A stretch of 64,000 nt of DNA from Candidatus Latescibacterota bacterium (GTDB taxonomy: Bacteria > Latescibacterota > UBA2968 > UBA8231): assembly GCA_965204725.1 (NCBI GenBank), contig OZ242005.1, positions 2,432,001 to 2,496,000 of the forward strand, read 5' to 3'. Below the pieces are notes generated by a model, which was given only the letters and a program-made list of their open reading frames with translations, searched no databases and was not told the DNA's origin. Positions 949-58,091 of the stretch are shown here, in pieces. Position numbers and translations under genes: made by a program. Positions within the stretch are counted from its first letter, which is position 1, and each line of letters opens with the position of its first letter.

Positions 949-957
949 AGAGACGCC

Positions 958-4218: not shown

Positions 4219-4242
4219 CCTACACGAGCCAAAGGGAAAATT

Positions 4243-6903: not shown

Positions 6904-9115
6904 GGCGCGGCCCTGGCACTCGCTGGCGGCCTTAGCAGTCTTGGCCTTGGGCCTGCGCCTAGCCTACCTGTTCCAAGCCGCGGACAGCCCTTTTTTCGAC
7001 GCGCCCATTGTAGATGCCCGAAGCTATACCGAATACGCCCACGAGTTGACGACCGGCACTTGGGCTGGGCGTCCGATGCCGTTCTGGCAAGCACCTTTTT
7101 ACCCGTACTTCCTAGCCGTTCTCTTCTCTCTTTTTGGCGAAAACTACTACCTGCCGCGGCTGCTCCAAGCCCTAGCCGGGACGACCACTTGCCTGATCGT
7201 CTTTAAGCTAGGTCGCACGGTCTTTTCGCCGACTGTAGGCTGGGTGGCCGGCTTAGGCGCGGCTTTGTACGGCCCCTTCCTCTACTTTGAGGGCGAACTT
7301 TTGCCCACGAGTTGGGCCGTGTTTTTCGACGCGGCACTGCTGGTGGTCTTGTTGCGGGGTCAGCGCCGGGGCGGCGTCTTGCCCGCGCTTAGTGCCGGTC
7401 TCGTCCTAGGGCTGGGGACCTTGGCCGTGCCGAATGTGTTGCTCTTTGCGCCGGTCGCGGCTTGGTGGGTGTACCGCATGGCAACGGGTCGCCGCGCCCT
7501 CCACGTGGCGGTCTTTGCCGCCGGTCTGCTACTGCTGGTCGGCCCGGTGACCCTGCGCAATCGCATCGTCGGCAACGAGTGGGTGCTCATCTCCTTCAAC
7601 GCGGGGGTCAACTTCTACATCGGCAACAACCCGGACTACGACCGCACCGTGGCCGCGCGGCCCGGAGCCGGGTGGAGCGAGGTGGTTGACTTGCCGCGAC
7701 GCGAGGCCGGCATCACCGAGCCGGGCGCGGGTTCAAGCTACCTTTTGGGCAAGGCTTGGGAGTATATACGCACCGATCCGAGCGGCTATGTGGCCCTGCT
7801 TTTGCACAAGGGCTACCTATTCTGGCAAGGAGCCGAGATCCCCCGCAATACCGATCCGTACGCCGCTGCTGAGTACTCGCCGCTGTTGCGCCTTTTGCTG
7901 TGGAAGTACGGCCTCGCGTTTCCCTTTGGGTTGGTCTCGGCCCTCGCCCTGCTCGGGGCGGCCTACGTCCTGCTCAAACCAGAGCGTCGCACTCCAGCGG
8001 CCTATCTCGTCTTGCTCTTTGCCGGGGTCTATATGCTGTCGGTGGTGCTGTTTTTCGTCACGGGCCGCTACCGCTTGCCGGCCGTGCCCTGTCTCTTGCT
8101 GCTGGCCGCCTATGGGGCTTGCACCTTGGCTGGTTTGCGCCGTAGGCCCTTGTATCTGTCGGCTGGGACCTTCGCCGGGCTGCTGGTGCTCACCAACGCC
8201 GGGACCGCAGCGACGAGCCCGCACGTAGCCGCCTTCCACCACTACTCGCTGGCCGCGGTCTATGAGAGTAAAGGCATGAAGACCAACGCCTTGCAGCACT
8301 ATCGCCGCGCCATCGAACTCGATCCGGCCCACGGCCGCGCCCTGCTGGGCCTGGCCTATATGTACGGAACGACCCAGCGCTACGATGATGCCGCTCACAC
8401 GTGGCGGCAATTCCTCAACCACTATCCCGACCAAGACGACGTCCGCCTCCAGCTAGCGGATTTTCTTCGGCTGCGGGGCCAGCCCCAAGAGGCGGCGGTC
8501 GAGTACCAAAAGCTCCTCGTGCGGCAGCCCGATCGAGCCGACCTCTACCTCCGCCTCGGTCGGGCCGAAGCCGCGGCCGGTCAATGGGTGCAAGCCGAAG
8601 CGGCCTATCGCCGCGCCCTCGAACTAGGCTCCCCGTCGGCTCACTACCTGCTAGGCCAGCTATACGAAGGCCAAGGCCAGCCTGCCCGCGCCGAGCAAGC
8701 CTATCAGCAGCTAATCGCCCTCCAACCCGATCATCTCGCCGGGTTGTGCCATTTAGCCGATCTGCTGCTCAAGCGGGGGGATGCGGAAACAGCCAAAAAC
8801 CATTTGCTCGCAGTGCTGACGCTCGACCCCGACAACGCCCACGCCTTGCGCAGCATGGGCACCTTAGAAGCCAACCAAGGCCAGTACCGCCAAGCCCTCC
8901 AGCGTTTTGAGCGCATCTTGCAACACCATCCCCGCGATTTGCCAGCCCGCCGCTCCCTATCCCACCTCCTGCTCAAAACGGGCCAGCGCGCCCGCGCCGA
9001 TGCCGAGTACGCACACTACCAACGCCTAAAGCGGCAGCACCGCATGCAGCAACAGACGCTAGAAAAAACCAAGGAACTAGCCGATCAACTGCGGCAGGTG
9101 TTCAAAGCGCACTAG
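6884..9115 (+). CDS. GT-C fold membrane glycosyltransferase (GT39/PMT/ArnT-like) with C-terminal TPR repeats
   Basis: Many TM segments; PIVDARSY, PFYPYFLA, NFYIGNNP and RYRLP motifs; TPR pattern (YRRAIELDP, AYRRALEL). Overlaps the upstream gene by 20 bp. Confidence 0.8.
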   Translation: MLAWANKARPWHSLAALAVLALGLRLAYLFQAADSPFFDAPIVDARSYTEYAHELTTGTWAGRPMPFWQAPFYPYFLAVLFSLFGENYYLPRLLQALAGTTTCLIVFKLGRTVFSPTVGWVAGLGAALYGPFLYFEGELLPTSWAVFFDAALLVVLLRGQRRGGVLPALSAGLVLGLGTLAVPNVLLFAPVAAWWVYRMATGRRALHVAVFAAGLLLLVGPVTLRNRIVGNEWVLISFNAGVNFYIGNNPDYDRTVAARPGAGWSEVVDLPRREAGITEPGAGSSYLLGKAWEYIRTDPSGYVALLLHKGYLFWQGAEIPRNTDPYAAAEYSPLLRLLLWKYGLAFPFGLVSALALLGAAYVLLKPERRTPAAYLVLLFAGVYMLSVVLFFVTGRYRLPAVPCLLLLAAYGACTLAGLRRRPLYLSAGTFAGLLVLTNAGTAATSPHVAAFHHYSLAAVYESKGMKTNALQHYRRAIELDPAHGRALLGLAYMYGTTQRYDDAAHTWRQFLNHYPDQDDVRLQLADFLRLRGQPQEAAVEYQKLLVRQPDRADLYLRLGRAEAAAGQWVQAEAAYRRALELGSPSAHYLLGQLYEGQGQPARAEQAYQQLIALQPDHLAGLCHLADLLLKRGDAETAKNHLLAVLTLDPDNAHALRSMGTLEANQGQYRQALQRFERILQHHPRDLPARRSLSHLLLKTGQRARADAEYAHYQRLKRQHRMQQQTLEKTKELADQLRQVFKAH

Positions 9116-45925: not shown

Positions 45926-48610
45926 TCAATACACCACCCCAACTAGGCGGGCAGCCGAGTTGGCATCCCTCGCGTCGTCGTCTATTTCAACACGGGCGAG
46001 GTAAAGGCCCGGGGATACTAACGTTCCCCCTTCGTCCCGTCCGTCCCAGACGAGGCGATACAGCCCGTTAGCCATATCGCGCTTCTCAGAAAGGCGCCTC
46101 ACTTTCCGGCCCGCCAAGTCGTAGAAGTCCACCGCTACTTGCCGGGCTACATTGACTTTGAGCACGGCAAACGAAAAGACGACCGCGTCGTTAATGCCGT
46201 CGCCATTTGGGGTAAAGGTGGCGGGGTTTACCTCGATCATCCCGATCTGCCCGCGGCGGTCGGTCGTCAATACTGTCAACCCCTCACCCGCGGCCAATTC
46301 GTCTCCGACGGGGTCTGCCGAATCGACCCGCTGCCAGTTGTCCGCTTGCGTCGAACGCCCGACCTCGGCGGCAAAAGTGGCACCGCTCAGGAAGACACGC
46401 GACGAAAAAGAGATCCGCACAATGTCCGCACTGCCTCGCCGCAGTATCCTAGGCAACTCGAATTGCAGCGTGTCGCTTGCCACCTTGGTCAACTCTAGTT
46501 CCTCCCCCGCCTCATTCTCAAAACGACCTTTTGCCACTTCGGCAAATGTTTCCTCGTTTCCGGCGGCAAATCCGCGTTCGTCTCCTAGACTCACTTGGCG
46601 CAGTTTGATATTCGCTCGCGCCGGAGCGATGAGACGGATGCGGTCGAATCCCGGATCTCGAACAGCGAAGGAGGGGCGGATGAATAGATCAAAAGCGGTG
46701 AGTTCTCCTATGGGGACATTCCGCTTGGGCTCTATTTCCCCGGCGATGCGCTCTGCCAGCGGTGCTGTGAAGTGGACTTGGATGGACTGTAGGCTGGGGG
46801 CCGCGGCCGCCTCTTTACTGAGCAGTCTCGTCTGGATCATCATATATTGCCGAGGACTGGGGGAACGCATGACTTCGCCCGGTTCGATGTAGGCTTGACT
46901 CCAGTTGCTCCAGCCCGGTCCCGGCAGGAACTCAGTAAGAATCTCTCCCCGGTAGAACGACGGCTGAGCCTCGTATTCTTCTTTGTTAGCTACCTCCGTG
47001 CCGTCTTTTTTGAAATAGCGGTTTACTTCGCGCAGATCGTTTCCCGTCCGGGTGCGGATTTCCACCGCTGTGCCCAAGGGGGTACTAGCTTCCCATTCGA
47101 TGGTAGTCAGCGTCTTAGAACTCGCCAGATCAATGAGACCGGAAGTCATCTCAATCATGGGCAGGTAGCCGTTGGCAAAGACTTGGATTTCGGTCACCGT
47201 GCTCAGTATCCGGTGCCCCTCATGGGCCCTAGTGCGGCGAGCAATGTCTAGGTTGCGGAATTCTAGAAAGCGCATCGGGCGCGGCGCAAAGCGATCCTCA
47301 AACAGCCGCGTATTCTGGTTCAGCCGCCGCGTCTCACGACTCAATTCCTCCCAGATCAAACTGCCATCGGGTGCCAGCGAGCCGTCCGAACCGCGCAACA
47401 GATAACCAATCAGGTTTCTTCCGCCGACGCGGGTAATGATGCGCACGGCATGGACTAGGAAGTGGGTGCCCAGATCTACGTTCAACAGACCCCATTCAGC
47501 GGTCTCCCCAGTGGGAAAGTAAACCATGCCCTGCCACTCGGTACGCACGTTGCCGTCAACGGCAAGTTCGGGCGAAGAATTGGGATTGACGTCGCGTAAG
47601 CTACCGCCGCGCTCTACGATTCCCAAGGCAATGTTCTCACCCACACTCCAGACCTCCACCTCGGCGAGTTGCGGCCGTTCGCGGCGGTAATAGCGCACCC
47701 CGCCCTGCTGGTCAACCGGCAACTGGTCGTAGTCATCAACCGCTACTAGACGCTCTTCGCCAGCGATTTTCCAGACGTATTCCACAGCGCCTTGGTCCTC
47801 TGCTGCCAGTGCCTGATAATCCTCGGCCGAGATCTGTTGCGCCCGCTCGCCCCTGGTGGCCGTGGCCGCGATGCGCAGGTACTGCATAAGGCGGCCGGTC
47901 CACTCCTCTGTATGAGTGCCCAGCGGTGCGAGGTCAAACTCAAAGACCCGTTGGGTGCGATTGGGCTGGGTGGTACTGCCGACCAAGGTGTAGTCCAAAG
48001 CACCGCTGCGGTCGGCCGTGCCGAAGGGGTTTTGCCCCCCGGCCGAATGCACTCTGAATTGCAGGAACGGATCCCCTGCTTCGGCAAAGCGCAAAACAAC
48101 CTTGGTGGCCGACACCAGACGGCCGAGATCAATCTCTAACACCCAGTCTTGCAGGGGATCGGCCGGGGCCGGCTCCCAAGCTGTAGCCGGATTTGCGTCA
48201 ATCGCCCGCTCCGCTAGCTGCGGATTTGAACCAGCCCTTTTGATGCCGCCGCGTGCCAGCAGGGCGTTGGTTTCGTCCTTGAACGAATTGGCGTACTGAT
48301 CCCGCAAGCTGCCATCAATGGGATAGCTAAAGTCGGCCGCATCCACTAGGGCGTTGTGCGGTACTTGTACCAATCTGGACTGCACCGAGCCAGACGGCGT
48401 TATCGTCACCATATCCCGCGGAAAATCCCAAGCCTGCCAGTGCGCCTCGGTTCGCACCTCCACCTGACCCTCGCCCAGACTGTACCCGCTCGACTGGGCC
48501 CATACCCCGTTTAGAGCCGTAGAGAAGAAAACAGCTCCACAACAAAGAACCGTGGGCAAAAGACCGGATCGCCTCGTGGTCGTCGCCGAAATCATCGAGC
48601 GGTGTCCCAT
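45926..48610 (-). CDS. Large secreted discoidin-domain protein with CHU_C/FlgD-like C-terminus ending VVY (paralog of 958-4218)
   Basis: Signal peptide (..GVWA/QS); WVLEIDLGR; GDPFLQFRV; RERPQLAEVEVW; TFTPNGDGIND; WDGRDEGG..VSPGLY; ends GVVY. Confidence 0.8.
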   Translation of the reverse strand: MGHRSMISATTTRRSGLLPTVLCCGAVFFSTALNGVWAQSSGYSLGEGQVEVRTEAHWQAWDFPRDMVTITPSGSVQSRLVQVPHNALVDAADFSYPIDGSLRDQYANSFKDETNALLARGGIKRAGSNPQLAERAIDANPATAWEPAPADPLQDWVLEIDLGRLVSATKVVLRFAEAGDPFLQFRVHSAGGQNPFGTADRSGALDYTLVGSTTQPNRTQRVFEFDLAPLGTHTEEWTGRLMQYLRIAATATRGERAQQISAEDYQALAAEDQGAVEYVWKIAGEERLVAVDDYDQLPVDQQGGVRYYRRERPQLAEVEVWSVGENIALGIVERGGSLRDVNPNSSPELAVDGNVRTEWQGMVYFPTGETAEWGLLNVDLGTHFLVHAVRIITRVGGRNLIGYLLRGSDGSLAPDGSLIWEELSRETRRLNQNTRLFEDRFAPRPMRFLEFRNLDIARRTRAHEGHRILSTVTEIQVFANGYLPMIEMTSGLIDLASSKTLTTIEWEASTPLGTAVEIRTRTGNDLREVNRYFKKDGTEVANKEEYEAQPSFYRGEILTEFLPGPGWSNWSQAYIEPGEVMRSPSPRQYMMIQTRLLSKEAAAAPSLQSIQVHFTAPLAERIAGEIEPKRNVPIGELTAFDLFIRPSFAVRDPGFDRIRLIAPARANIKLRQVSLGDERGFAAGNEETFAEVAKGRFENEAGEELELTKVASDTLQFELPRILRRGSADIVRISFSSRVFLSGATFAAEVGRSTQADNWQRVDSADPVGDELAAGEGLTVLTTDRRGQIGMIEVNPATFTPNGDGINDAVVFSFAVLKVNVARQVAVDFYDLAGRKVRRLSEKRDMANGLYRLVWDGRDEGGTLVSPGLYLARVEIDDDARDANSAARLVGVVY

Positions 48611-48631
48611 AGCTTATGGTCCCGGTTATCG

Positions 48632-50371
48632 CTACCCATCGCTCTTGGGCGGGGCTTTCCAAGCATGGCGCTGCAAGAAGGTATCGGGCAGGGCCGCCTC
48701 CAACGCCCTAGCAGATACAGCGATCCGCTCTTTGTATTTGTCCAGCAGGTCATCAACCAAGTCTTCAAAAAGTTGCTCTCGCTTCTGGCCGCGTACTAAG
48801 GCCCGCGCCTTTTTCTCGACTTGAAAAAAGGAGGATAACTCTCCGCCCTCGCGGTTGAGAACTTTGAAAATGCTGTATCCATCTTTAAGGTGTACCGGGC
48901 CGGTTATTTTGTCGAGGCTGGCCGCCTGTACTGCTTTGAAGAGCTGCGGCTGGGTCAAGCGCTCGTACTCGCCCAGATGCATCAAGCCATCTTTCTTTTT
49001 CATATCTCGGCGAATGGTGTGCTCTTGGGCGAGCGTTCCGAGGGTCGCACCCTGTTCGATAGCGCGCAGCAAACCGGCGGCTTCCACCTCGGTCTCGACC
49101 AGCACTTCAACGACGATGTATTGGGCCGGCTCCCGGAACAACTCCTTATTGTTCTCGTAAAAGTCCCTCGCTTCCTCCCGGCTCGCCTCGGATTGGTCGA
49201 TGATCTCTTCCGCACGCAGTTGTTTGATCATGAATTCTGTGCGTATTTCCTCCAACCGCTGTTGTCCATCCGCCATCTCCTCCAACCCAGCCCGCTGCGC
49301 CGCCGCTGCCAGTAAAGCCGGTATCAGAACCAGTTCCCTCGCGGTATCAACCACCTCGGCGCTGTCCCGCATGCCCCAGCCGGACAAGGCCCGCATATCC
49401 GTCCACAGGGCATTGAGGTACTCTCTCAGCGAGACCTGTCCCCCCTTATAGGTAAAGAGGGGCTGGGCCGCTTCCTCGGCGGCCAGATGGGTGAGTCGCA
49501 CCCGGGTGTGGAGTGCCGCTTTATCCAACAGGAGCTCCACGCCCGCTGGGACTAGCTGCACGTCCAGCTTACGGACGAGGGCCGCGATTTCCACTTCCTC
49601 CTGCTCTAGGCGCTTGCGTTCGTAGAGTATATCGCGAATCTGCTGTCGTTTCTCCGCTAGCGGGACGGGCTGGTCCTGGAGGAAGCGCACGATCTGGTAG
49701 CGCGTGCCCATGGGCAGAATGGAAGACGGCTGTCCACTCGGCAGGTTGCGGAACACCTCGTCTGGAATCTGCAACCTGCGGGCCTGCTCCAGATCGATAA
49801 ACCCCAGCACTCCTCCTTGGGCAGCCGACCGTTCGTCTATGGTGTACTCGGCGGCCAGCCGGGCAAAATCCCCGCCCGCTTTGAGTTGCTCATAGACTTG
49901 CTTTGCGGTGCTGTCCTTTTCGACCAAAATGCCCGCCATCTGGCGCTTGCGGTCCAAGCCGCTGCGAGCGAAATAGGCGCGTACCTCCTCCGCGGAAACC
50001 TGCACGTTGGGTGCCAATACGAGCCGGCGATAGGTGTTGACCAAGTACTGACGCCAGTAGGGCATCACCTTGGCCTGTACCACCTCGGCGGTATCCAATC
50101 CCCGCTCTTTGGCCTCCAGTACGAGCAGGTGCTTGGCCAGCAGACTGCGCAGGTAGCGCTCCCTCACTCGGTTTCCCTGCCCAGAGAGGCGCAAGGACTG
50201 GGGCATCTCGAAGACGAAATCGCGCATCTCGGCCGCCGAGATGGAAGTAGAATCAACGCGCGCCACCACCCCGGGTTCGAGGGCAACCTCCGCATCCGGC
50301 GAACACGCCGCGAGGCTCCAGATAAGGGCCAACTCGCATCCTTGCCGAGCCCGGGGTTTTCTGTTTCTCAT
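48632..50371 (-). CDS. Lipoprotein chaperone with two parvulin/PpiC-like domains (SurA/PrsA-like)
   Basis: Lipobox LAAC; VVARVD..IS; DFARLAAEYTID.RSAAQGGVLGFI; second domain EVLVETEVEA...ITGPVHLKDGYSIF. Confidence 0.85.
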   Translation of the reverse strand: MRNRKPRARQGCELALIWSLAACSPDAEVALEPGVVARVDSTSISAAEMRDFVFEMPQSLRLSGQGNRVRERYLRSLLAKHLLVLEAKERGLDTAEVVQAKVMPYWRQYLVNTYRRLVLAPNVQVSAEEVRAYFARSGLDRKRQMAGILVEKDSTAKQVYEQLKAGGDFARLAAEYTIDERSAAQGGVLGFIDLEQARRLQIPDEVFRNLPSGQPSSILPMGTRYQIVRFLQDQPVPLAEKRQQIRDILYERKRLEQEEVEIAALVRKLDVQLVPAGVELLLDKAALHTRVRLTHLAAEEAAQPLFTYKGGQVSLREYLNALWTDMRALSGWGMRDSAEVVDTARELVLIPALLAAAAQRAGLEEMADGQQRLEEIRTEFMIKQLRAEEIIDQSEASREEARDFYENNKELFREPAQYIVVEVLVETEVEAAGLLRAIEQGATLGTLAQEHTIRRDMKKKDGLMHLGEYERLTQPQLFKAVQAASLDKITGPVHLKDGYSIFKVLNREGGELSSFFQVEKKARALVRGQKREQLFEDLVDDLLDKYKERIAVSARALEAALPDTFLQRHAWKAPPKSDG

Positions 50372-50379
50372 GTCTTCTA

Positions 50380-52230
50380 TCAGTACACCACAGCGATAGG
50401 CCCCAGTCGCTCCGCCCGACCGCTGCCTGCTTCTACCGCGACGCGGTAAATGTATAGTCCTGGAGCTACCAATTCGCCTTGGTCATCTCGCCCGTCCCAA
50501 GCAGTTTGATAAAGCGCACTTCCCCCCTCTCCACGGACCAAGGCGCGCACTCGCCTTCCAGCCAGCGTGTAGATTTCCGTCTCAAGGGGCACGCCATCGG
50601 TCAGACTCAGTAAAGTATAGGAGAACTGCACTTGGTCGTTGACGCCGTCTCCATTGGGTGAAAATGGGTTGGGAACCGCCTGCACGGCACTGAGCAGACA
50701 GCCCTTGAGCGGTGTGCGGACGTCCAAGGCGTCGCTCAACAACTCGCTCATAGCATCTCCGGGCATAACGCTCTGGGGGACTGAATCGCTGTCCGCATCC
50801 GACACCGCGCCGCTGAAGGTGGTTCCATAATTGAATACTCGGGCGTCGAAATCCACTTCGAGGAGCGTCTGGTCTCGGTCGATGCGGGCAAATTGGACCG
50901 CGAACTGGTGGGGATCCGCCGGATCGAAATTCGGGGTAAAATCGACTGCTTCGCGGTCAATGCGCACCTCGTGGACGGCCTCCAGACGAGCGGGCGTCCG
51001 CACCGCTAGAACATTGAAACCCGATTGCTCCGCCTCGAGCCGAGTCCGCACCGCATAAGTGAACCGAACCGGGTCGGAGGACTCGACAAAAGGAGGGAAA
51101 ATCTCACCAATCGCCGCGGTGGCGATAGGAGGTTGAGAAAATTCAAAGAACAGCGAGTCGATCTGGCCTCCCGCCAAGCTGGCGGAAAAAAAAGCGATGC
51201 GTACTTGCACGTACTGCCGGGGGCTGGGAGAGAGCATCGGGATGCCGGCGAGTCCGTCCGCATACTCATAGGTGTGCCACACGCTCCAATTTTCCAGATC
51301 TTGGGTAATGCGCCCCTGCACATTCTGGGGCATGGCCCTATAGGCTTGGCGGCTCATGGGCCGACCGTTGGCCCCGAATGGGACTTCCTCTCCCCCCACT
51401 CCGGTCTTGCGCCAGTAGATCTCGGGCTGGTCGTCGCGGCCGCTGCGGCTCTGGATGACTACTTTCGCTCCCATATCGAGCTGACCGCTCCACCAGATGC
51501 GTCCCAAACTGGATGCTCGTCCCAGATCGATCGGGTCGGACAGAAACGAGGCTTGGGGAACAAACCCCTGACCGTACACCTCGAATTCGGCCACTTCCCA
51601 CGTCTCCCCCACTTCTAGGGGATGGAGATAGACGTGGCGTACTATCTGGGGTGGTATATCCAGTTCGACCTCTGGGCTTAGGTTGTCTTTCTCATCGCGC
51701 ACCAAGGTCCAGATGAGATTCCCCTTTTCGTTTTTGCTCTCTTCCCTGCCGTCGTTGACGTAAAGCCTGAACTGGCGAATCTTGTGCCCTACATGATCGG
51801 CGCGGGTTGCAAAGCGGACCCTTTCAATGGGGAATGGCGCCCCCAAATCGAAGAACATCGGCGTAGTATAGAAGAATCCGGGGCCGCGAAAGAAATTGAT
51901 GCGCGGCGGATGCACAAAAGCCGTAGTCGAATCGCCATCTACTACCAGTACGCGGTCGTCGAGCCAGTTCGCTGGCAGAGTGTAAATGCTCACCAAGCTG
52001 GTAATATCGCCATTCCGCTCGCCCATTGAGGCGATTAGGTTCTCGCCGCTTTCGGCGCTGAGCGGGCGGATGGCGTCCGGCACTTTTTCCACATCGATAA
52101 AGCTCAGGGCACCGCTTTCACTCCAAGGGTTTCCGGCACGGCCCCCCAGTTGGTAAAATTGGCGCGCCTCGGCCCGATAGCCCGGTCCCGTCCCCAACAC
52201 TGTCAGGACTATAATCAGGACCTGTCTCAC
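50380..52230 (-). CDS. Secreted protein (~616 aa), single discoidin-like domain, CHU_C/FlgD-like C-terminus ending VVY
   Basis: Start re-assigned to GTG 52230 after AGGAGG; FDLGAPF; AEFEVYGQGFVP; SDPIDLG; NPFSPNGDGVND; WDGRDDQG..VAPGLY; ends AVVY. Confidence 0.8.
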   Translation of the reverse strand: MRQVLIIVLTVLGTGPGYRAEARQFYQLGGRAGNPWSESGALSFIDVEKVPDAIRPLSAESGENLIASMGERNGDITSLVSIYTLPANWLDDRVLVVDGDSTTAFVHPPRINFFRGPGFFYTTPMFFDLGAPFPIERVRFATRADHVGHKIRQFRLYVNDGREESKNEKGNLIWTLVRDEKDNLSPEVELDIPPQIVRHVYLHPLEVGETWEVAEFEVYGQGFVPQASFLSDPIDLGRASSLGRIWWSGQLDMGAKVVIQSRSGRDDQPEIYWRKTGVGGEEVPFGANGRPMSRQAYRAMPQNVQGRITQDLENWSVWHTYEYADGLAGIPMLSPSPRQYVQVRIAFFSASLAGGQIDSLFFEFSQPPIATAAIGEIFPPFVESSDPVRFTYAVRTRLEAEQSGFNVLAVRTPARLEAVHEVRIDREAVDFTPNFDPADPHQFAVQFARIDRDQTLLEVDFDARVFNYGTTFSGAVSDADSDSVPQSVMPGDAMSELLSDALDVRTPLKGCLLSAVQAVPNPFSPNGDGVNDQVQFSYTLLSLTDGVPLETEIYTLAGRRVRALVRGEGGSALYQTAWDGRDDQGELVAPGLYIYRVAVEAGSGRAERLGPIAVVY

Positions 52231-52260
52231 CCAGTGCCTCCTTTGCTCGATTGTCACCAA

Positions 52261-52298
52261 GAAAACGGCGGGGTTCACAGTCGCCTGCAAACCCCGCC
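52261..52298 (-). terminator. Intrinsic terminator/attenuator-like hairpin after the TWGQIK protein gene
   Basis: GGCGGGGTT...AACCCCGCC stem (52267-52298), followed on the minus strand by GTTTTCTT. Confidence 0.65.
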
Positions 52299-52342
52299 TG
52301 AAAATGCCTTCAACGTCTGTGGTGCAGGCAGTCGAGTCGGCC

Positions 52343-53218
52343 TTATTGGAAGGTAGCCTTGATCTGGCCCCAAGTGTTGGCCTCGACCGAGGTAGGTCCG
52401 GCGTCGGGCAATCCCTCTTCAATGGGGGCCAGCAGATAGTCGCCGAACTGGTCGGCATCCCTAGAAGCACCTATGCCGCCAAAACCGGACCAGTAGGCAT
52501 CGTCGTAGGAGCCGGGATCGGCATCCTTGTCGCCCCAGTTGACCTCTAGGCCGACGACCGTGCCTTCCACCCAATTGTGCCTGATACTTTGCTCGGGGCC
52601 GTCAGGGTGGATGTCGTCAAAGGGCACGATAGAGTATTCGCCGAACATTTCGGCTGGCTCTTGGGTATCGACATTGCCGCGGAGAAACCGGCCGGCCCAC
52701 TCCACGTACGGGGACTGGCCCGCCCACGCTTTGGAGCCATCGATAATCCGGGTATAATAACCAGAAGAACTGAAAATCGGGCCGGCCAGATCGTAGCGCT
52801 GGGCTTGGGCGCTGGCCCAGCGGGTCTCGAAGTCATCCCCTTGGTCGAAACCGCGAAAGATGCCGCCCGTGTGATCCCAATCCGTGGTCGTCGACCACTT
52901 CTCGGTGTTGTTGATAAAATCGTCGGCGATCCAAGCTCCAAAATAAGCCTTGCCATCGTTGATGTTGTAGCCCCAGACGAGCCACGCATTGAAATCGCTC
53001 AAATCCATGGGGGCTCCGAACTGGTTGAACATGGTTTCGGCTTTGATCTTGTACACATCGCTGACAATGTCCCAGTCCGACATATCGCCATCCAACACCG
53101 GAGTCAGATGATCCGGGAACTGGAACATGAACTTCATCTCGCCTTGGTGGCCAAAAGCCGCGCCGACCACGAAGGCCGAGACCAGTAAAGCAACTGATAC
53201 CTCGTAGATCCTCTTCAT
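52343..53218 (-). CDS. Secreted acidic protein (~291 aa), CBM9/DOMON-like, with C-terminal VEANTWGQIK tail
   Basis: Start re-assigned to MKRIYE (AGAGG RBS); signal peptide; PVLDGDMSDW; VVGLEVNWGDKD; ends TSVEANTWGQIKATFQ. Confidence 0.7.
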   Translation of the reverse strand: MKRIYEVSVALLVSAFVVGAAFGHQGEMKFMFQFPDHLTPVLDGDMSDWDIVSDVYKIKAETMFNQFGAPMDLSDFNAWLVWGYNINDGKAYFGAWIADDFINNTEKWSTTTDWDHTGGIFRGFDQGDDFETRWASAQAQRYDLAGPIFSSSGYYTRIIDGSKAWAGQSPYVEWAGRFLRGNVDTQEPAEMFGEYSIVPFDDIHPDGPEQSIRHNWVEGTVVGLEVNWGDKDADPGSYDDAYWSGFGGIGASRDADQFGDYLLAPIEEGLPDAGPTSVEANTWGQIKATFQ

Positions 53219-53402
53219 TGCAATACCTCTTTTTTTGGTTGGTGTGAGGACATTGCGCCCCTTGCTGCCCAAGCGGGCCGCCTGAAACGACGACTGTATC
53301 TTTCTCCTCCTTTCTGCTGCCAACAGATCGTCTCGTCTATTAGAGCAATATAGCTTCAATATCAATTTTAACCTAACTCAACTTTGAAGCCGGTCAAATC
53401 CA

Positions 53403-56096
53403 CTAGCGTTCGAGCCCTGCATAGGCCGTCATGAATATCTTGCTGGTCGTGCTAGGAGACAGATTTTCAAACGTCAGCTTCTGTAGACGAAATCCCGTTT
53501 GCAGATGGAGCCTGTAGCCGAGGTAATCCGAGGCGTTATTAAATTGCACCGCGACGATGCGGCTGAAGGAATCCGGATCCAAGTCGCGATGAACCGGCAC
53601 CCCCTCGGCGTCGCGGAACTGCTCAAAGTGGGACAGTTCTAGTCCTAACTCGATGAGCGTATGGGAGAGCAGGGGAATGCGAGCAATAAGAAAAAGCGTC
53701 TCGGTCAACTCACGGCGCTCTGGATCGCGCTGGCGAACGGGGCGCGTGCGCAAAAATTCGCTCTTGAAACGCGGTTCAAATTCGATGGTTCCCACCGAGA
53801 AGGTGTAATCAACCTTGTTGATGAGACCGACAAAGCTGGCCGTGCGGCGCAGATCGCGCTGATCCCGGCGCTGGTTGTAGATTTCAGTCTTGAACTTGTT
53901 GATTACATTCAGGTTCCCTAGGCGCGTAAAATCGAACTGCATATAAGAAGCGTTGACCCAAGTGTCGCGAGCCGGGAACGGATCGAAAATGCGCTGTTGA
54001 GTACCGCGGGAATTAGATGGCTGCACCCACTGAAAGAGGTTGTCGGGAATATTGTCCTCGACCAGCTTGAAATTGTCGAACACTCGCAAACGGCCCAGCC
54101 CGGCAAAATCCCGGTCGTAGGTGAAGAGCAGGTACGTGGATTTGTTTGTGCGATCCCCCGCTAGCAGTTCTTCGCGCAGATGCCCGACGGTCAGCCGAGC
54201 CTCGGCCCCGATGTGGGTTCCCGCGTACATATTGTAGCCGCGGTGGTCCCGTCCGTAGGGATAGTCGGGCTCCTCGTCGTTTTCAAAGCGGTCGACCCAG
54301 CCGTTGTTGTTCATGTCGATGCCAAAGAGGTATTCGGGTCTATCGGCGTGATAGCGCAGGAAGGGCTCTTCGTAGTCGGGAACGAAGTTTTGGCGATCCT
54401 CCGTATCGTTCTGGTTGAAATCCGAGATGAAATCGTTGTTCTCGTCAAAGCCCGGAAATACCGCATTGTCCGACAACATACCAAAGCGGTTCCAGTCCGG
54501 CCGGCGGTCCTGGTCGTCGTTGTCCTCGACGAACTCGTAGATATAGGATATTTCGTCTTCGTAATCGATTTCGTCCTGGCCGCGCGTGCCGGCCAAGAAG
54601 GTGCGGGTCGAATAGTCGTCGTCCATGCTATAGCCTTCGAGAAAGACGAAATAGGGATAGGACGCCTTGGACAGGTTGAACATCCATGCCTCGGCGTCGT
54701 TGACCGCTTTGCGGTGATCCTTCCGATTGAGGTTGGGATATTGGCGGTATTGCTTGTTGAAATCGTACTCCCCGTAAAAGTCAAAACCCCAGATCTTGTT
54801 GGCCGCCAAGGTAACGCCGAGGATGGTATTGGCCGTCGGCAGACCGTAATCGAATTGCAACAGGTGCTGGTTGGAGTTGTCGCGGATGTTGTTTTGCGCC
54901 CGTTCGATCAGCAAGAAGACGGGCTGCGAGTCCCGGTTGGTCTGGCGGTCCGACGTGATTTCCACCTTGTAGTCGTTGGAGATCACCAATTCAAAGGATA
55001 TTCTCTCAATAACTGTAGGATCGGGTCCTAGATACAAAGGGTCGGTAAAATCGTAGGTGAGGGTAATGCGCTCGTCCCCATCCGCGGCCAAAAATCCCAC
55101 CCGTTGGAAACCCCCTTCGCGTATGGGCTCGAATCCTATGGCACTGCCTCTGAAAACGTTGCCATCTACATCCTCGATGATGATTTCGTCGTCGAATAGG
55201 GCCGCCCCACCCACCCCGTCTGCGGGCGAGTCGTCCGACAGCCGGATGATGATGCGGGATATGGGCAGCGCATTCTGGTCGGTGGTCAGAGCCCCGCCGG
55301 TGAAAGGGTTGCCGGTGAAATCGTCGAATAGCGTCTGGCCTTGGAAGGCGGTCACATAGGTCGCTCCGACCTCGACGAAGTCGCCAACTTGGACGGTGCC
55401 CCGCCCGCCCAGTAAATTGGTAACACTCGTTTTCTGATCGGGAATATCGAGAGAAGTGGCCACTGCCGGCCGACTAGGCCGGGCCAGCAGGAGAGTGCCT
55501 TGGTACTTGTCGGCCGCAAAGTCCCACTGAATGCCGTTGAAGGTGGGTTTAGAAAAAGTCATCGGCGTCAGAGTCGTGCGGATCTCATCCCCAATCGTGA
55601 TGCTATAGTAGTATTGTCCCTTGTGGTCCGAGGATACGACCACTCGGTTGAACCACTGGTTGAACCTGTTGGTCTTGAGGATGCTGCTGCCGAACTGCTG
55701 GGGACGGTCTTGCTGCCAATCGTAGATCAACCAGCCCCGGGTGACTAGATTGCCGAAGAAGTCGTAGAAGTAATCGCCCTCCAACGCGGTATCTACATAG
55801 CGCTGATAGGGGTCGCGGGCGTAGTTGGAGTACTCCCATTGTCTCCACTGATACTCCTCGTACAGTTCTTGGGGCACGTACCACTTGTGTACTGTCGGAT
55901 TCAGCGCACCGAATAATACCCCTGGTCCTTGGGGAGAAAAACTCACCGTTCCATCCTGCTTCACTCTACCGAGGCGCGAGCCGTACTCTTGAGCACCGGC
56001 CCCAAGCGGCGCACCCCAACCTAGCGCGTAGAGAACGGTGCCTATCGCAATCAGATATCGCTTGCTCAAAATCCTCCCTCCTCCCTTGGCTGGCAC
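53403..56096 (-). CDS. Conserved ~890-aa exported protein, putative outer-membrane beta-barrel (paralog of 4243-6903)
   Basis: Signal peptide (..GAGA/QE); same conserved blocks as the paralog; ends IFMTAYAGLER versus FITLYAGLGK. Start may be TTG 56069. Confidence 0.7.
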   Translation of the reverse strand: MPAKGGGRILSKRYLIAIGTVLYALGWGAPLGAGAQEYGSRLGRVKQDGTVSFSPQGPGVLFGALNPTVHKWYVPQELYEEYQWRQWEYSNYARDPYQRYVDTALEGDYFYDFFGNLVTRGWLIYDWQQDRPQQFGSSILKTNRFNQWFNRVVVSSDHKGQYYYSITIGDEIRTTLTPMTFSKPTFNGIQWDFAADKYQGTLLLARPSRPAVATSLDIPDQKTSVTNLLGGRGTVQVGDFVEVGATYVTAFQGQTLFDDFTGNPFTGGALTTDQNALPISRIIIRLSDDSPADGVGGAALFDDEIIIEDVDGNVFRGSAIGFEPIREGGFQRVGFLAADGDERITLTYDFTDPLYLGPDPTVIERISFELVISNDYKVEITSDRQTNRDSQPVFLLIERAQNNIRDNSNQHLLQFDYGLPTANTILGVTLAANKIWGFDFYGEYDFNKQYRQYPNLNRKDHRKAVNDAEAWMFNLSKASYPYFVFLEGYSMDDDYSTRTFLAGTRGQDEIDYEDEISYIYEFVEDNDDQDRRPDWNRFGMLSDNAVFPGFDENNDFISDFNQNDTEDRQNFVPDYEEPFLRYHADRPEYLFGIDMNNNGWVDRFENDEEPDYPYGRDHRGYNMYAGTHIGAEARLTVGHLREELLAGDRTNKSTYLLFTYDRDFAGLGRLRVFDNFKLVEDNIPDNLFQWVQPSNSRGTQQRIFDPFPARDTWVNASYMQFDFTRLGNLNVINKFKTEIYNQRRDQRDLRRTASFVGLINKVDYTFSVGTIEFEPRFKSEFLRTRPVRQRDPERRELTETLFLIARIPLLSHTLIELGLELSHFEQFRDAEGVPVHRDLDPDSFSRIVAVQFNNASDYLGYRLHLQTGFRLQKLTFENLSPSTTSKIFMTAYAGLER

Positions 56097-56105
56097 CTAC
56101 TACTG

Positions 56106-58091
56106 TTAATATACCACGGACACACTGCTCGAACGCCGCTCGGTCTCCCGGTCCGAGCGGATTTCCACTACCACTATGTAGATGCCCGGCGGCACTAGGC
56201 GACCGTCGCCGCCGCGACCATCCCACTGGAGCTCGATGCGGCCGTTTGGGACCTCAACCGAGTTGAGCCGCCGCACGTGGCCACCGGCCAAATCGCGGAT
56301 ATTTACCTCCGTCAGCGCGGGTTCGAGTAGGTGCAGAACCGCATAGCTTATTTGCGCCTCGTCATTGGCCCCATCTCCATTGGGGGTGAAGATCCGCGGC
56401 TGGATTGCCAGCGGACCAGCCACCTGCGAGCCTACGGTAATCCTCACCAGCAACTCGTCGGTATCCAGTTCGGCTGAAGCATCCCCGCCTGCGGTCTGTA
56501 GCGGCACTTGCACACTCGCATCGGCAAAGGCTCGCCCTTGGAAACGCGTACCATAGCGGAACACGGCCGCATCAAAGACAATTTTCAAAAGGGTGCCATC
56601 GGCGCTGATCAGGGGTAATTTTAGGGCAAAGTGGTCGTCCTCCACGGCCTCAATGGCGAACGATCCGACGCGCAGGGGCAAAGACACATCGGCTAGATCG
56701 CCGCTGAACTCGGCTCCATCTAGGCGATTGCCCGCCTCATCTTGGATCTCCACCGAATGGATGGCCGCGATGCGAGCCGGGGTTTCGATTGCAAAGCGCG
56801 TAAATCCCGGCCGACCCGTAGTATTGGCGATGTGGGCGAAGTACGTAAAAGTCGTCTGTTTGCCGACCTCGGTTCGCGGTGGTCCCACCTCGGCGATGAT
56901 GCGATCAACCGGGGGCCGTGCGAACTCAAAGCCCAAGTCGGCAACAGCGCGGCTAGCATCTAGGCTCAGATTGGTGAAGTCAATGCGAAACTGGAAGTAC
57001 GACCGTGGTGCCGGCACAGTCAGCGGGACCCCATTGTCGACCACTTGCCACTGGACCCAGCCGTTGTCGGTATCGGATTTGATGGGGCCTCGCTGATTTT
57101 TCGCCAGTTTCTCAAAGGTTTCCGCGGTCAGCGTATTGCCTTCGCTGTCGGTGGACACGTATTCGGGTTGCCGCCCCCCCACGTTGGCATTGCGGAAAAA
57201 GATATCTGGTGTCGTATCCCGCCCGCTGCGTACGCGAACTTCCATCTTGGAATCCGCGCTATTGCCCGCGGCTATTTCGCTCCAAGCAATTCGGCCCCAG
57301 ACCACCTCCTCGCCCAGATCCAGCACATTGGACACATAGCTAGCCGTCGGTACGAACCCCCTGCCGTACACCTCTATCTCGTCAATTTCAAATCCGAGGG
57401 TGGAAATCGACTTGAGTTGCAAAAAGCGGACAAATTGGGGATTGATTTGGGCTTCTACTCTGGCCTCGCGGTTGTCTGGATCGCGCCGCACCGGCGAGGT
57501 AAAAATGGGCTGCCCACTGGCAAAGAGGTTTTGCGGCAAGCCATCGTTGAGGAACAACTCATATCCCCGCATGAATTCGTTCCCAAAGGGAAATGCCGCC
57601 GTCATCCGCGGATAGAATACGATTTGGTCCACTCCAAAGCGCGCACCCAAGTCAATGCGAATGGTGACGCCGTTGTTGCGCACGATGCGACCGGCCACGA
57701 ACTTGCGGTCAAAAGCCACGCGGTGGTCGCCATTGAGCATACCCGCCAATTGCTCTGGGTCTTTCTGGCTGGCATCCAGCCCCGGAATATCTATAGTCCC
57801 TCCTCGCTCGAGAATACCGAGCGAAATGTTGAAGTCGGAGCGCAAGCGCAGCGGCATGATCCAGTTCCGCAGAGAATCCAAGCCATCGGCGAACACTTTT
57901 TCGCCGTTGGCGTCCTCGATAGTCCCCAGTTGCTCGACAAAATCGATTACGCCCCCGGGTGTTGTGCCAGAATTGCGCCAAGGACGTGCGTCGCCCCCGA
58001 CCGTAAAAACATCCTGTGCGCTGGTTGGGCACACGGACAGCAGGAGGAGAAGAAAAATTGGCGCAGGAGGGACTAAAAAACGAGCGTTCAT
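56106..58091 (-). CDS. Secreted protein (661 aa), single discoidin-like domain, CHU_C/FlgD-like C-terminus ending VVY
   Basis: Signal peptide (..PTSA/QD); IDLGARF; DEIEVYGRGFVP; SNVLDLG; IFTPNGDGAND; WDGRGGDG..VPPGIY; ends SVVY. Confidence 0.8.
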   Translation of the reverse strand: MNARFLVPPAPIFLLLLLSVCPTSAQDVFTVGGDARPWRNSGTTPGGVIDFVEQLGTIEDANGEKVFADGLDSLRNWIMPLRLRSDFNISLGILERGGTIDIPGLDASQKDPEQLAGMLNGDHRVAFDRKFVAGRIVRNNGVTIRIDLGARFGVDQIVFYPRMTAAFPFGNEFMRGYELFLNDGLPQNLFASGQPIFTSPVRRDPDNREARVEAQINPQFVRFLQLKSISTLGFEIDEIEVYGRGFVPTASYVSNVLDLGEEVVWGRIAWSEIAAGNSADSKMEVRVRSGRDTTPDIFFRNANVGGRQPEYVSTDSEGNTLTAETFEKLAKNQRGPIKSDTDNGWVQWQVVDNGVPLTVPAPRSYFQFRIDFTNLSLDASRAVADLGFEFARPPVDRIIAEVGPPRTEVGKQTTFTYFAHIANTTGRPGFTRFAIETPARIAAIHSVEIQDEAGNRLDGAEFSGDLADVSLPLRVGSFAIEAVEDDHFALKLPLISADGTLLKIVFDAAVFRYGTRFQGRAFADASVQVPLQTAGGDASAELDTDELLVRITVGSQVAGPLAIQPRIFTPNGDGANDEAQISYAVLHLLEPALTEVNIRDLAGGHVRRLNSVEVPNGRIELQWDGRGGDGRLVPPGIYIVVVEIRSDRETERRSSSVSVVY

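Follow-up and report, generated by a model that had tools for sequence, protein, structure and literature searches.

We describe here a six-gene locus, one of the many copies of a previously undescribed Latescibacterota envelope cassette whose products probably build an unrecognised cell-surface complex. The locus lies within the window, the 64,000-nucleotide stretch of a Candidatus Latescibacterota genome that was analysed, and encodes three passenger proteins ending in tyrosine (Y-tailed passengers, T), a predicted giant outer-membrane β-barrel (B), a small secreted protein (C) and a lipoprotein with two parvulin domains (P). Searches of the open-access literature on Latescibacterota, a widespread, uncultured group of sediment and water bacteria, returned no description of such a cassette.

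Gene content of the cassette

The sequence-only reading had placed six co-oriented genes with export signals at positions 45926–58091; all six were recovered as minus-strand open reading frames (Table 1), each with a signal-peptide-like N-terminus, and P579 bears a lipobox-like LAAC. C291 carries the tail TSVEANTWGQIKATFQ and has the C-terminus TWGQIKATFQ. Translation of T616/696 probably begins at position 52230, which gives a protein of 616 aa; its orthologues measure 616–625 aa. The recurrence of the part list at positions 1–6903 was likewise found, with a partial parvulin gene, T1086 and B886 located there. This second cassette extends upstream past the start of the window, the whole parvulin gene (547 aa; C1:2431305–2432948) beginning outside it. 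Following B886 is a PMT_2/TPR gene, the first 20 bases of which lie within the end of B886; the two are therefore probably co-transcribed. All four passengers in the window terminate in VVY (T616/696 in AVVY).

Table 1. Cassette genes in the window (positions counted from the first nucleotide of the window)
Feature	Positions	Strand	Description
T661	56106..58091	-	661 aa; signal peptide, CBM32-fold domain predicted at ~84–245, further β-sandwich domains, Y-type CTD at 555–661
B897	53403..56096	-	897 aa; predicted giant outer-membrane β-barrel, family undescribed
C291	52343..53218	-	291 aa from the Met at 53218; longest ORF, to 53365, 340 aa
T616/696	50380..52470	-	Second Y-tailed passenger; longest ORF 696 aa
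P579	48632..50371	-	579-aa lipoprotein with two parvulin (PPIC-type) domains, SurA/PpiD/PrsA type
T894	45926..48610	-	894 aa; third Y-tailed passenger
Parvulin, second cassette	1..948	+	3' part of a double-parvulin gene; Rotamase_2, 53.1 bits
T1086	958..4218	+	1086 aa; Y-tailed discoidin passenger of the second cassette
B886	4243..6903	+	886-aa giant barrel paralogue of the second cassette; 48% identity to B897 over 877 residues
PMT_2/TPR protein	6884..9115	+	Membrane glycosyltransferase-like with C-terminal TPR repeats; PMT_2, 29.3 bits, and many TPR families

A predicted giant outer-membrane barrel

Neither B897 nor B886 matched any Pfam or NCBIfam model, and B897 also found no match among PDB sequences in a phmmer search; a profile of the B family gave only chance-level matches to PDB sequences, with SlpA not among them. 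A match of the ~890-aa protein to an already characterised family, which would have counted against the sequence-only reading, was thus not found. The family is large, comprising 773 clusters at 50% identity. The AlphaFold2 model of B897 (pLDDT 79.5, pTM 0.79) predicts an outer-membrane barrel of ~28–30 long strands, as counted by hand from the DSSP list of the model, and the top fold matches are all outer-membrane barrels, so that the suggestion of a barrel is supported at the level of modelled structure. Deinococcus SlpA ranks first (Foldseek E 2.9e-10 to 1.3e-9; VIA Z 15.0 over 423 residues and 14.0), with TM-scores of only 0.20–0.28 and an rmsd of 7.8 Å, the level expected of a generic large barrel. 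Further features of B897 are a conserved aromatic N-terminal stretch, a β-rich insert at ~281–400, and an acidic Asp/Asn block at ~523–617, which is the best-conserved region in the conservation profile. With the SlpA_C model (PF21620; cut-off 35 bits), 9 of 52 family members gave weak matches (best E 7.6e-5) and B897 gave nothing at E≤1; within this genome the best score was 17.9 bits, from one divergent B paralogue only.

Several candidate identities for B were rejected. DUF6029, a lead from the ESM Atlas (0.89), matched none of the 52 family members at E≤1. Assignment as a TonB-dependent receptor or SusC was discounted, there being no Plug or TonB_dep_Rec match in B897 or B886; the genome holds 20 Plug matches, all in genes other than B. 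Nor is B a PorV or PorP, as it matched neither family, and B897 and B886 gave no match to the PorP/SprF models PF11751 and TIGR03519. A genome-wide search with PF11751 returned nothing, but the controls were likewise silent; TIGR03519 detected two ~330-aa ORFs elsewhere in the genome, which scored 44 and 43 bits where the cut-off is 90.55.

Passenger proteins and their C-terminal domains

In the AlphaFold2 model of T661 (pLDDT 90.4), residues 84–245 superpose on the CBM32 module 4zxe with a VIA Z of 14.7 and an rmsd of 2.4 Å (131 of 136 residues), and many other CBM32 modules rank below it. Judged by this superposition, T661 carries a CBM32/discoidin galactose-binding-like jelly roll and the passengers are lectin-like, in line with their earlier description as discoidin proteins. 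Among Pfam models, T1086 is the sole window passenger over the F5/8 type C cut-offs (F5_F8_type_C, 28.7 bits; F5_F8_type_C_2, 31.2 bits; cut-offs 28.2 and 27.8 bits); T894 falls slightly below them (25.4 and 26.9 bits), and F5/8 type C is absent from the Pfam matches of T661 and T616/696. FlgD_ig passes in one of the four passengers (T661, 37.1 bits), with T616/696 scoring 24.1 bits. In the tree of the Y-tail family, subfamilies are tied to gene position: T616/696 belongs to a clade of 679–742 aa, and T894 to a clade of ~1020–1111 aa whose members elsewhere lie directly upstream of a barrel.

The tail of T661 (residues 555–661) superposes on the C-terminal domain (CTD) of PorU (6za2_B, 1054–1157) with a VIA Z of 12.7 and an rmsd of 2.3 Å over 99 residues, at 19% identity; in the model, it therefore has the fold of a type IX secretion system (T9SS) CTD, an Ig-like β-sandwich. 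The genome encodes 188 CTD proteins, 104 ending in Y and 84 not, and the two classes are told apart by HMM cross-scores. Y-tails end in [VLI][AV]Y and share a core motif with the 84 type A tails of the genome; in the part before the tail, all 104 Y-tailed proteins form one homologous family. With the type A model TIGR04183 (cut-off 23 bits), none of ten random Y-tails passed (best 20.4 bits), in contrast to ten of ten random non-Y tails (30.7–41.7 bits), and T1086 was the only window passenger to match, at 13.1 bits and under the cut-off. The type B model TIGR04131 (cut-off 35 bits) was passed by none of the ten random Y-tails, seven of which matched weakly (best 20.2 bits), and by none of the four window passengers. 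For CHU_C (PF13585; cut-off 27 bits), the scores were 25.9 bits for T661, 26.1 for T616/696, 23.8 for T894 and 33.1 for T1086, the only one to pass; precomputed Pfam data annotate CHU_C on most T661 homologues. The sequence-only reading had taken these tails as type B (CHU_C) CTDs, an assignment that needs amending: they do not appear to be canonical members of that class, none of those scored reaching the TIGR04131 cut-off.

The small protein and the parvulin

Orthologues of C291 measure 285–291 aa. C291 and 20 homologues gave no match to Pfam, CBM9_1 (PF06452) included, and a profile of C found nothing in the PDB. The ESM Atlas clusters nearest to C291 carry CBM9_1 (scores 0.97, 0.95 and 0.93, with the domain in 13%, 37% and 94% of members, respectively), and a 318-aa paralogue of C with the same kind of tail matches CBM9_1 at 38.6 bits (cut-off 23.4). 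C291 is thus probably CBM9-like. In P579, Rotamase_2 (60.2 bits) and Rotamase (58.5 bits) exceed their cut-offs in two stretches of the protein. Whole-protein NCBIfam models of peptidylprolyl isomerases also match, all under their cut-offs, and SurA_N_3 was found only in a P paralogue, at 29.0 bits.

Copy number and linkage

Across this genome (94% complete, 10% contamination) we found 38 B genes in 28 loci, together with 26 small proteins with a WGxIK tail and ~25 double parvulins; the cassette parts together account for 7.5% of the genome DNA, ~407 kb. Within 12 kb of a B gene lie 82 of the 104 Y-tailed genes, as opposed to 7 of the 84 other CTD genes; the remaining 22 Y-tailed genes stand away from any B. 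The gene directly upstream of B is a Y-tailed gene in 26 of 38 cases and a second B in six, and four B genes have no recognised gene upstream. Parvulins (23 of 25) and small proteins (22 of 26) fall within 10 kb of a B gene, a distance within which only 12.7% of the genome lies. The adjacency of Y-tailed and B genes, together with this clustering of parvulins and small proteins, rules out a chance neighbourhood. Distances among B genes correlate with those among the adjacent Y-tailed genes (r=0.67), a value reached in none of 2000 permutations. The cassette modules diverge as units; linkage and co-divergence speak for shared inheritance, not for binding.

Conservation across Latescibacterota

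In other Latescibacterota we identified 33 orthologous loci with B proteins 67–92% identical, and the order T-B-C-T-P-T is kept in 26 of them by hand count; the other seven are cut by contig ends. Among 151 genomes of the phylum, 95 carry B and 81 match the T661-type profile, and both occur in all 64 genomes of the window's own family. Two further families (f2 and f3) have neither in 48 genomes, and in a third (f10) the T661-type profile is absent at E≤1e-30 from 13 of 13 genomes, all of them B-bearing. Among distant families (five genomes), a Y-tailed gene lies directly upstream in only 4 of 12 B loci. The HMMs were built from one genome only, which may partly explain the gaps in T among distant families. 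The expectation that the parts co-occur therefore holds for the 28 loci of this genome and for 26 of the 33 orthologous loci, but 8 of the 12 B loci in distant families have no adjacent Y-tailed gene.

Secretion context and proposed model

As to secretion, SprA (485 and 116 bits) and PorU (623 bits), both scoring above cut-off, are encoded elsewhere in the genome, with a PorV-like gene adjoining porU (150 bits, under the cut-off of 250). Of the gldKLMN genes, gldM was not found in the genome and gldK returned only domain-level FGE-sulfatase matches. With a T9SS core encoded at other sites, the cassette resembles a T9SS add-on more closely than a secretion system of its own; the earlier proposal of an undescribed secretion system is borne out as regards the undescribed cassette and less so as regards a self-contained secretion route.

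We propose, with a probability of roughly 45%, that the cassette specifies lectins that are exported by the T9SS and retained by a giant barrel of their own, on the analogy of type-B cargo with its PorP/SprF partner. The T proteins would be exported by Sec and would then cross the outer membrane via the genome's T9SS (SprA, PorV-like protein and PorU), using the CTD that ends in [VLI][AV]Y. The cassette's own barrel B would capture T and hold it at the surface, as PorP/SprF holds type-B CTD cargo in Bacteroidota, and the SurA-like double-parvulin lipoprotein P may chaperone the very large B, its cargo, or both through the periplasm. An additional subunit could be supplied by C, with its probable CBM9-like character and WGxIK tail. 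Together these parts would form a surface complex that binds glycans, of which this genome would carry 28 diversified versions. Within this model we infer that export depends on the T9SS, that B holds the passengers, that the parvulin acts as a chaperone and that the ligands are glycans; the earlier casting of B as anchor, shuttle or translocon and of P as a foldase for the passengers similarly draws on gene order and on the PorP/SprF analogy. A complex prediction for B897 (36–897) with T661 (555–661), using an alignment for each, returned no answer (score 0.00, mark 0.32) and is evidence neither way.

According to PMC9143113 and PMC12618676, type-B CTD cargo pairs with a cognate PorP/SprF protein, as in SprB–SprF and PG1035–PorP–PorE of Bacteroidota. 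The cassette resembles these pairs in having Ig-like CTD cargo with an FxPNGDGxND-type start, a gene adjacent to that of a barrel, many cargo–barrel pairs per genome, and a T9SS core encoded elsewhere. It departs from them in that each barrel comes with a parvulin, a probably CBM9-like protein and between two and four cargo genes, which belong to fixed subfamilies, and in that it occurs in another phylum. Speaking against the holding model at the level of sequence, the Y-tails, with their [VLI][AV]Y ends, fall below the cut-offs of both T9SS tail models, TIGR04131 included, and B has no similarity to PorP/SprF, being about three times longer (~890 aa with ~28–30 predicted strands, compared with ~300 aa) and matching neither PF11751 nor TIGR03519. 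Further points against it are the results for gldM and gldK, the 22 Y-tailed genes remote from any B, the four B genes that lack a recognised upstream gene, the B-bearing f10 genomes with no T661-type match, and the B loci of distant families that have no Y-tailed gene directly upstream.

Alternative explanations

A rather improbable alternative, though one to be taken seriously, is a new outer-membrane machine that is no T9SS accessory, in which ~30-stranded barrels with their own SurA-like chaperones would export, thread and carry lectin subunits; the Y-ended CTD would serve for recognition of the lectins and a second short tail (TSVExxSWGxIK) for that of the small subunit, and the machine may also import material captured by the lectins. 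On this view Latescibacterota would have multiplied a modular surface organelle up to the 7.5% of the genome seen here. Unlikely, too, is a nutrient-capture or import port, similar in function to the polysaccharide-utilisation loci (PULs) of Bacteroidota, with B as a wide channel for glycans caught by T and C and a substrate specialisation that differs among all 28 cassettes; such a role would be compatible with B also holding the lectins. Like SusC/SusD loci, the cassettes are multi-copy and diversified, combining many diverged copies of an outer-membrane barrel with surface proteins that carry carbohydrate-binding modules, here the modelled CBM32 fold and CBM9-like features. The closest fold to B is that of SlpA, which forms a wide pore. 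Membrane proteins of the DUF6785/DUF6784 type are enriched near B (13 of 34 within 10 kb, against 12.7% of the genome), and the neighbours also include ABC permeases, a solute-binding protein and some genes of sugar metabolism. However, the 114 neighbour genes around the 28 loci, each 150 aa or longer, include no match at E≤1e-5 to any family of glycoside hydrolases or polysaccharide lyases. Unlike PULs, moreover, the cassette has no SusD, its binders have CTD tails in place of lipoprotein signals, and B has no Plug or other signature of a TonB-dependent receptor, although 20 Plug-bearing receptors are encoded elsewhere in the genome.

Resemblance to SlpA also bears on the idea, which we consider decidedly unlikely, that B is a distant SlpA-type barrel at the base of a glycoprotein surface coat, carrying a layer of T and C glycosylated by the PMT_2/TPR proteins; many copies would then vary the surface, for example against phages or grazers. 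SlpA of Deinococcus radiodurans (SDBC complex; 8ae1, 7zgx, 8agd) is, like B, a very large single-chain outer-membrane barrel and heads the fold matches (Foldseek E 2.9e-10; VIA Z 15.0, 423 residues); SlpA_C is weakly matched in the 9 of 52 family members noted above, and the PMT_2/TPR architecture is found seven times among the 114 genes that neighbour the 28 loci, and one such gene overlaps the end of B886. Yet the 7.8 Å rmsd is typical of large barrels in general, the PDB sequences matched by the family profile do not include SlpA, B897 itself has no SlpA_C match and one divergent paralogue alone reaches 17.9 of the required 35 bits. Pfam searches detected no SLH domain; B897 has neither an SLH nor a coiled-coil N-terminal part, and differs from SlpA in its own acidic block and insert and in having 38 paralogues per genome. 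Least probable to our minds is a T9SS-independent, chaperone–usher-like route of export and assembly, with P as the chaperone, B as an usher-like pore and T as the subunits of a fibre or array. Most loci do include a periplasmic folding helper (23 of 25 parvulins lie within 10 kb of B), T subfamilies stand in fixed order upstream of B, and FimD and PapC are among the fold matches of B897 (Z 14.2 and 13.1). Porins and AlgE score as high as these ushers, so the matches reflect the shared barrel only. LptD–LptE, MtrCAB and FimD/PapC, similar-sized barrels with a partner in or on the barrel, resemble B only as generic barrels (TM 0.15–0.33) with no sequence relation, and the partner of B is putative. 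LptD and FimD depend on SurA. Against an usher-like route, furthermore, neither an usher plug nor a pilin-like fold was observed, the tail has the modelled T9SS CTD fold and shares its core motif with the 84 type A tails, and SprA, PorU and a PorV-like gene are present in the genome.

Significance

One genome devotes ~407 kb to a cassette whose central protein is unnamed in Pfam, NCBIfam and the PDB. So far, cargo tails matched to a cognate barrel are known from a few Bacteroidota proteins. If B holds or passes T9SS-type cargo, as the lectin-holding model has it, this pairing would be older and more varied than thought, with one of the largest single-chain barrels predicted among its members, and T9SS biology would reach beyond Bacteroidota. 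If B is instead an import port, the cassette would stand as a counterpart of polysaccharide-utilisation loci that works without TonB. On either reading, ~25 putative dedicated SurA-like chaperones in a single genome offer a testable case of outer-membrane biogenesis.

Gene content of the two cassettes

Six minus-strand ORFs with short gaps between them fill the first cassette, and a second set comprises a parvulin gene truncated by the window start, the lectin-like passenger T1086 and the large protein B886, confirming the gene set proposed in the sequence-only reading. All six ORFs of the first cassette have signal-peptide-like N-termini, with a lipobox-like LAAC in the double-parvulin lipoprotein P579. 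The four window passengers (T) end in VVY, and the small secreted protein C291 (C) ends in TWGQIKATFQ. In Pfam, the three first-cassette passengers carry C-terminal FlgD_ig and CHU_C matches, mostly slightly below cut-offs, P579 has two parvulin domains and T894 has weak F5/8 type C matches; CHU_C and F5/8 type C were above cut-offs in T1086. Neither B897 nor C matched Pfam. B886 is 48% identical to B897, and its end is overlapped by 20 bases by a gene whose product resembles PMT_2 membrane glycosyltransferases and carries TPR repeats at its C-terminus. Elsewhere in the window, a segment with a G+C content of 0.52–0.54, versus ~0.62 in the rest, may be an acquired defence-like island, and a 974-aa ORF matches no Pfam family at E ≤ 0.01.

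Features of the window (positions in the 64,000-nt stretch)
Feature	Coordinates	Strand	Description
T661	56106–58091	−	First in transcription order of the first cassette (45926–58091)
B897	53403–56096	−	Second
C291	52343–53365	−	Third; longest ORF, 291 aa from Met at 53218
C291 tail	52343–52400	−	TSVExxSWGxIKxxF-type end
Second passenger	50380–52470	−	Fourth; longest ORF, 616 aa if the start is 52230
P579	48632–50371	−	Fifth
T894	45926–48610	−	Sixth
Second cassette	1–6903		Truncated parvulin, T1086, B886
PMT_2/TPR gene	6884–9115	+	Overlaps B886 end
Low-G+C segment	9246–17672	−	Schlafen AlbA_2/HATPase_c_4 protein, 1053-aa sacsin-domain protein, 1293-aa SNF2-type helicase
974-aa ORF	36817–39741	−

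Passengers and their tails

The T661 model (47 homologues, pLDDT 90.4) consists of β-sandwich domains. With VIA, residues 84–245 superpose on the CBM32 module 4zxe (Z 14.7, rmsd 2.4 Å, 131 of 136 residues), followed by several Clostridium perfringens CBM32 modules, and residues 555–661 superpose on the C-terminal domain (CTD) of PorU (6za2_B; Z 12.7, rmsd 2.3 Å, 99 residues, 19% identity). On the basis of these superpositions, the modelled tail has a type IX secretion system (T9SS) CTD fold, and the earlier description of the passengers as discoidin proteins holds even where Pfam is silent.

Tails ending in Y have a consensus that starts fTPNGDGvND and ends VaY, while non-Y tails start nyPNPFNp and have a last residue that is basic or aliphatic. 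The core WDGrD..G..v..G.Y is common to the two classes. Ten of ten randomly drawn non-Y tails passed the NCBIfam type A model. Among ten randomly drawn Y-tails, none passed either the type A or the type B model, and seven were listed weakly for type B; judged by sequence, the Y-tails therefore appear to form a separate class whose start is type-B-like. The type-B (CHU_C) motif noted initially recurs in the fTPNGDGvND start, and of the four window passengers T1086 alone exceeds the CHU_C cut-off.

A large predicted outer-membrane barrel

B897 found no match in NCBIfam or among PDB sequences either, and these searches placed it in no characterised family. More than 1091 relatives were found at E ≤ 0.001 among 8000 candidates scored, and those listed are all "hypothetical" where the source names them, none having a precomputed Pfam domain; an exhaustive search of 50%-identity representatives yielded 773 clusters. 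An AlphaFold2 model based on 52 diverse relatives (mean pLDDT 79.5, pTM 0.79) is nearly all long β-strands, ~28–30 by hand count from the DSSP list, interrupted by a β-rich insert (~281–400) and a strand-poor stretch (~491–617). Foldseek returned outer-membrane barrels only: Deinococcus SlpA entries first (E 2.9e-10 to 1.3e-9), then MtrB, FimD and LptD, with low TM-scores (0.15–0.33). In VIA, SlpA was likewise top (Z 15.0, rmsd 7.8 Å, 423 residues), with AlgE and FimD tied within 1 Z unit. Pfam SlpA_C matched 9 of the 52 relatives weakly (best E 7.6e-5) and B897 itself not at all; in the window's genome it matched one divergent B paralogue only (17.9 bits versus a cut-off of 35), and the B family profile found no SlpA among PDB sequences. 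In view of the model, the fold matches and these searches, the predicted barrel fold is well supported, in line with the barrel that was to be looked for in the ~890-aa protein. SlpA may at most be a relative, and this is an undescribed family. The most conserved part of B897 is an acidic Asp/Asn block at 541–630, which may resemble calcium-binding loops.

The most SlpA_C-like divergent paralogue (892 aa) lies within C1:2164624–2193734, on the same contig as the window, beside a Y-tailed gene of 555 aa and a run of eight CTD genes without the final Y (most 717–813 aa), an array of a different kind.

Census of the genome

The genome (5.43 Mb, 94% complete, 10% contamination; window at C1:2432001–2496000) was surveyed using our own six-frame list of ORFs (80 aa or longer), which leaves start codons uncertain. 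It contains 38 B genes in 28 loci; three of the genes are divergent, and one is broken into two. An HMM from the four window tails, iterated once, recovered 188 CTD proteins, of which 181 have the domain at their extreme C-terminus; 104 end in Y, and all of these form one BLAST-connected family in the pre-tail part. The distance to a B gene is at most 12 kb for 82/104 Y-tailed proteins versus 7/84 other CTD proteins; within 10 kb, a zone covering 12.7% of the genome, lie 22 of 26 C-like proteins and 23 of ~25 double parvulins (P). Together, B, Y-tailed, C and P genes occupy 7.5% of the genome.

Directly upstream of the 38 B genes is a Y-tailed gene (26), a second B (6), C or P (2) or nothing recognised (4). 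When the 104 Y-tailed proteins are placed in a tree, the clades follow gene position: T661 groups with 574–587-aa proteins directly upstream of B genes, and T894 with 1020–1111-aa proteins that sit directly upstream of B in other cassettes. Divergence of B correlates with that of the adjacent Y-tailed gene (r = 0.67, reached by 0/2000 permutations) and of its Y-tail alone (r = 0.60), which shows that cassette modules duplicate and diverge as units, not that their products are in contact.

Conservation in other genomes

Fifty-nine related loci come from MAGs titled mostly Latescibacterota, with some Gemmatimonadetes, Planctomycetota or Handelsmanbacteria. By hand count, the order T(~660)–B–C(~290)–T(~620)–P(~580)–T(~890) is complete in 26 of the 33 loci whose B is 67–92% identical to B897; the other seven are broken by contig ends and agree up to there. 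Paralogous loci carry the same parts in other orders.

In a sample of 151 genomes of the phylum, 95 matched the B profile, including 64/64 in the window's own family and none in two others (f2, 0/30; f3, 0/18). A T661-type profile (E ≤ 1e-30) matched 81/151 and followed the pattern of B in 10 of 14 families, the exceptions being f10 (0/13), f7 (0/1), f14 (0/1) and f8 (1/5). Twelve B loci were inspected in five genomes belonging to f10, f7 and f14. Four had a Y-tailed gene directly upstream of B or a B tandem, and three had C-like genes nearby; the remaining loci had type-A-like tails only, or nothing recognised by the HMMs used. The expected co-occurrence is thus borne out among orthologous loci and within the window's family, but only partly in distant ones: the B–T pairing is strong in the window's family and looser, or harder to detect, farther off.

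Neighbouring genes and the small protein C

A 20-kb segment centred on each of the 28 loci was scanned, and in these segments 114 genes of 150 aa or more fall outside the four families. They include ~16 pure TPR proteins, seven PMT_2 proteins (most with TPR repeats, the architecture of the gene beside B886), 12 FG-GAP/UnbV_ASPIC proteins, five DUF6785/DUF6784 membrane proteins, four GDSL lipases, two FGE-sulfatase proteins, two further parvulins, two ABC permeases, one solute-binding protein and one CBM9_1 protein. The overlap of a PMT_2/TPR gene with B886, and the recurrence of this architecture near the barrels, hints that the surface proteins may be glycosylated. Two more large paralogue families and one lipoprotein family gather near the cassettes: within 10 kb of a barrel lie 20 of the genome's 43 FG-GAP/UnbV_ASPIC (CRTAC1-like) paralogues, 13 of its 34 DUF6785/DUF6784 proteins and 12 of the 13 members of a 251-aa lipoprotein family.

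C has no PDB match. In the ESM Atlas it adjoins clusters carrying CBM9_1 (scores 0.97, 0.95, 0.93), and a 318-aa paralogue, which has a tail like that of C, passes CBM9_1. Of 98 ORFs bearing the motif W[GA]x[IVL]K, 52 have it in their final 16 residues, usually preceded by TSVE; 23 of the 52 belong to the C family. Other ORFs with the TSVExxSWGxIKxxF tail encode small secreted-looking proteins (150–380 aa). This tail matches no model searched and appears to be a distinct tag for sorting or docking.

Secretion genes and a possible mechanism

SprA (2198-aa frame) and PorU (1269-aa frame) are encoded above curated cut-offs, and a PorV-like gene adjoins porU. Of the T9SS genes to be sought, sprA and the porV-like gene were thus found; gldM was not found in this genome, and the gldK model gave partial matches only, to small FGE-sulfatase proteins. 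As judged from these matches, a T9SS core, perhaps an incomplete one, is present. The FGE-sulfatase proteins (289–411 aa; C1:89103, 891190, 2419847, 3339008 and others) match GldK over its C-terminal half. Several are neighbours of barrel loci, and one (2986470–2987381) has a WGQIK tail. PF11751 (PorP/SprF) found nothing in the genome, with controls equally silent, and TIGR03519 gave two sub-threshold ORFs of ~330 aa (44 and 43 bits versus a cut-off of 90.55) at C1:249156–249953 and 1653753–1654550. The former adjoins a C-like gene as well as an orphan Y-tailed gene (884 aa) at ~250–255 kb.

The holding of T9SS type-B cargo by PorP/SprF is documented in PMC9143113 and PMC12618676. The cassette resembles that system in pairing tail-tagged cargo with a putatively cognate barrel, but differs in that neither partner passes as a clear member of a known family. 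It is therefore conceivable, if unlikely, that the cassette is a categorically new machine; no publication on it was found in the open-access literature searched. We tentatively propose, with a probability of about 45%, that the T proteins exit via the T9SS and that the barrel of their own cassette holds them, as PorP/SprF does type-B cargo.

The barrel could instead serve as an import port, which we consider rather improbable, and import and holding are compatible, so that both can be true. Among the 114 neighbours there is no match to a glycoside hydrolase or polysaccharide lyase family, which argues against a catabolic locus of the polysaccharide-utilisation type, although uptake is still compatible. 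The reading of the barrel as SlpA-like and forming the base of a coat that is glycosylated draws on the leading SlpA fold matches and the PMT_2/TPR genes; against it stand the absence of an SlpA_C match in B897 and the sub-threshold score of the one paralogue in this genome, and we regard such a coat as distinctly improbable. FimD among the fold matches would suit a T9SS-independent, usher-like pathway; against it stand the predicted T9SS CTD fold of the modelled tail and the presence of SprA and PorU in the genome, and we hold this route to be very improbable. Under T9SS export with retention by the barrel, the lectin-like T proteins would leave the cell through the T9SS and be held at the surface by the B barrel of their cassette; P would chaperone the large barrel or its cargo, and C may be a further subunit of the complex.
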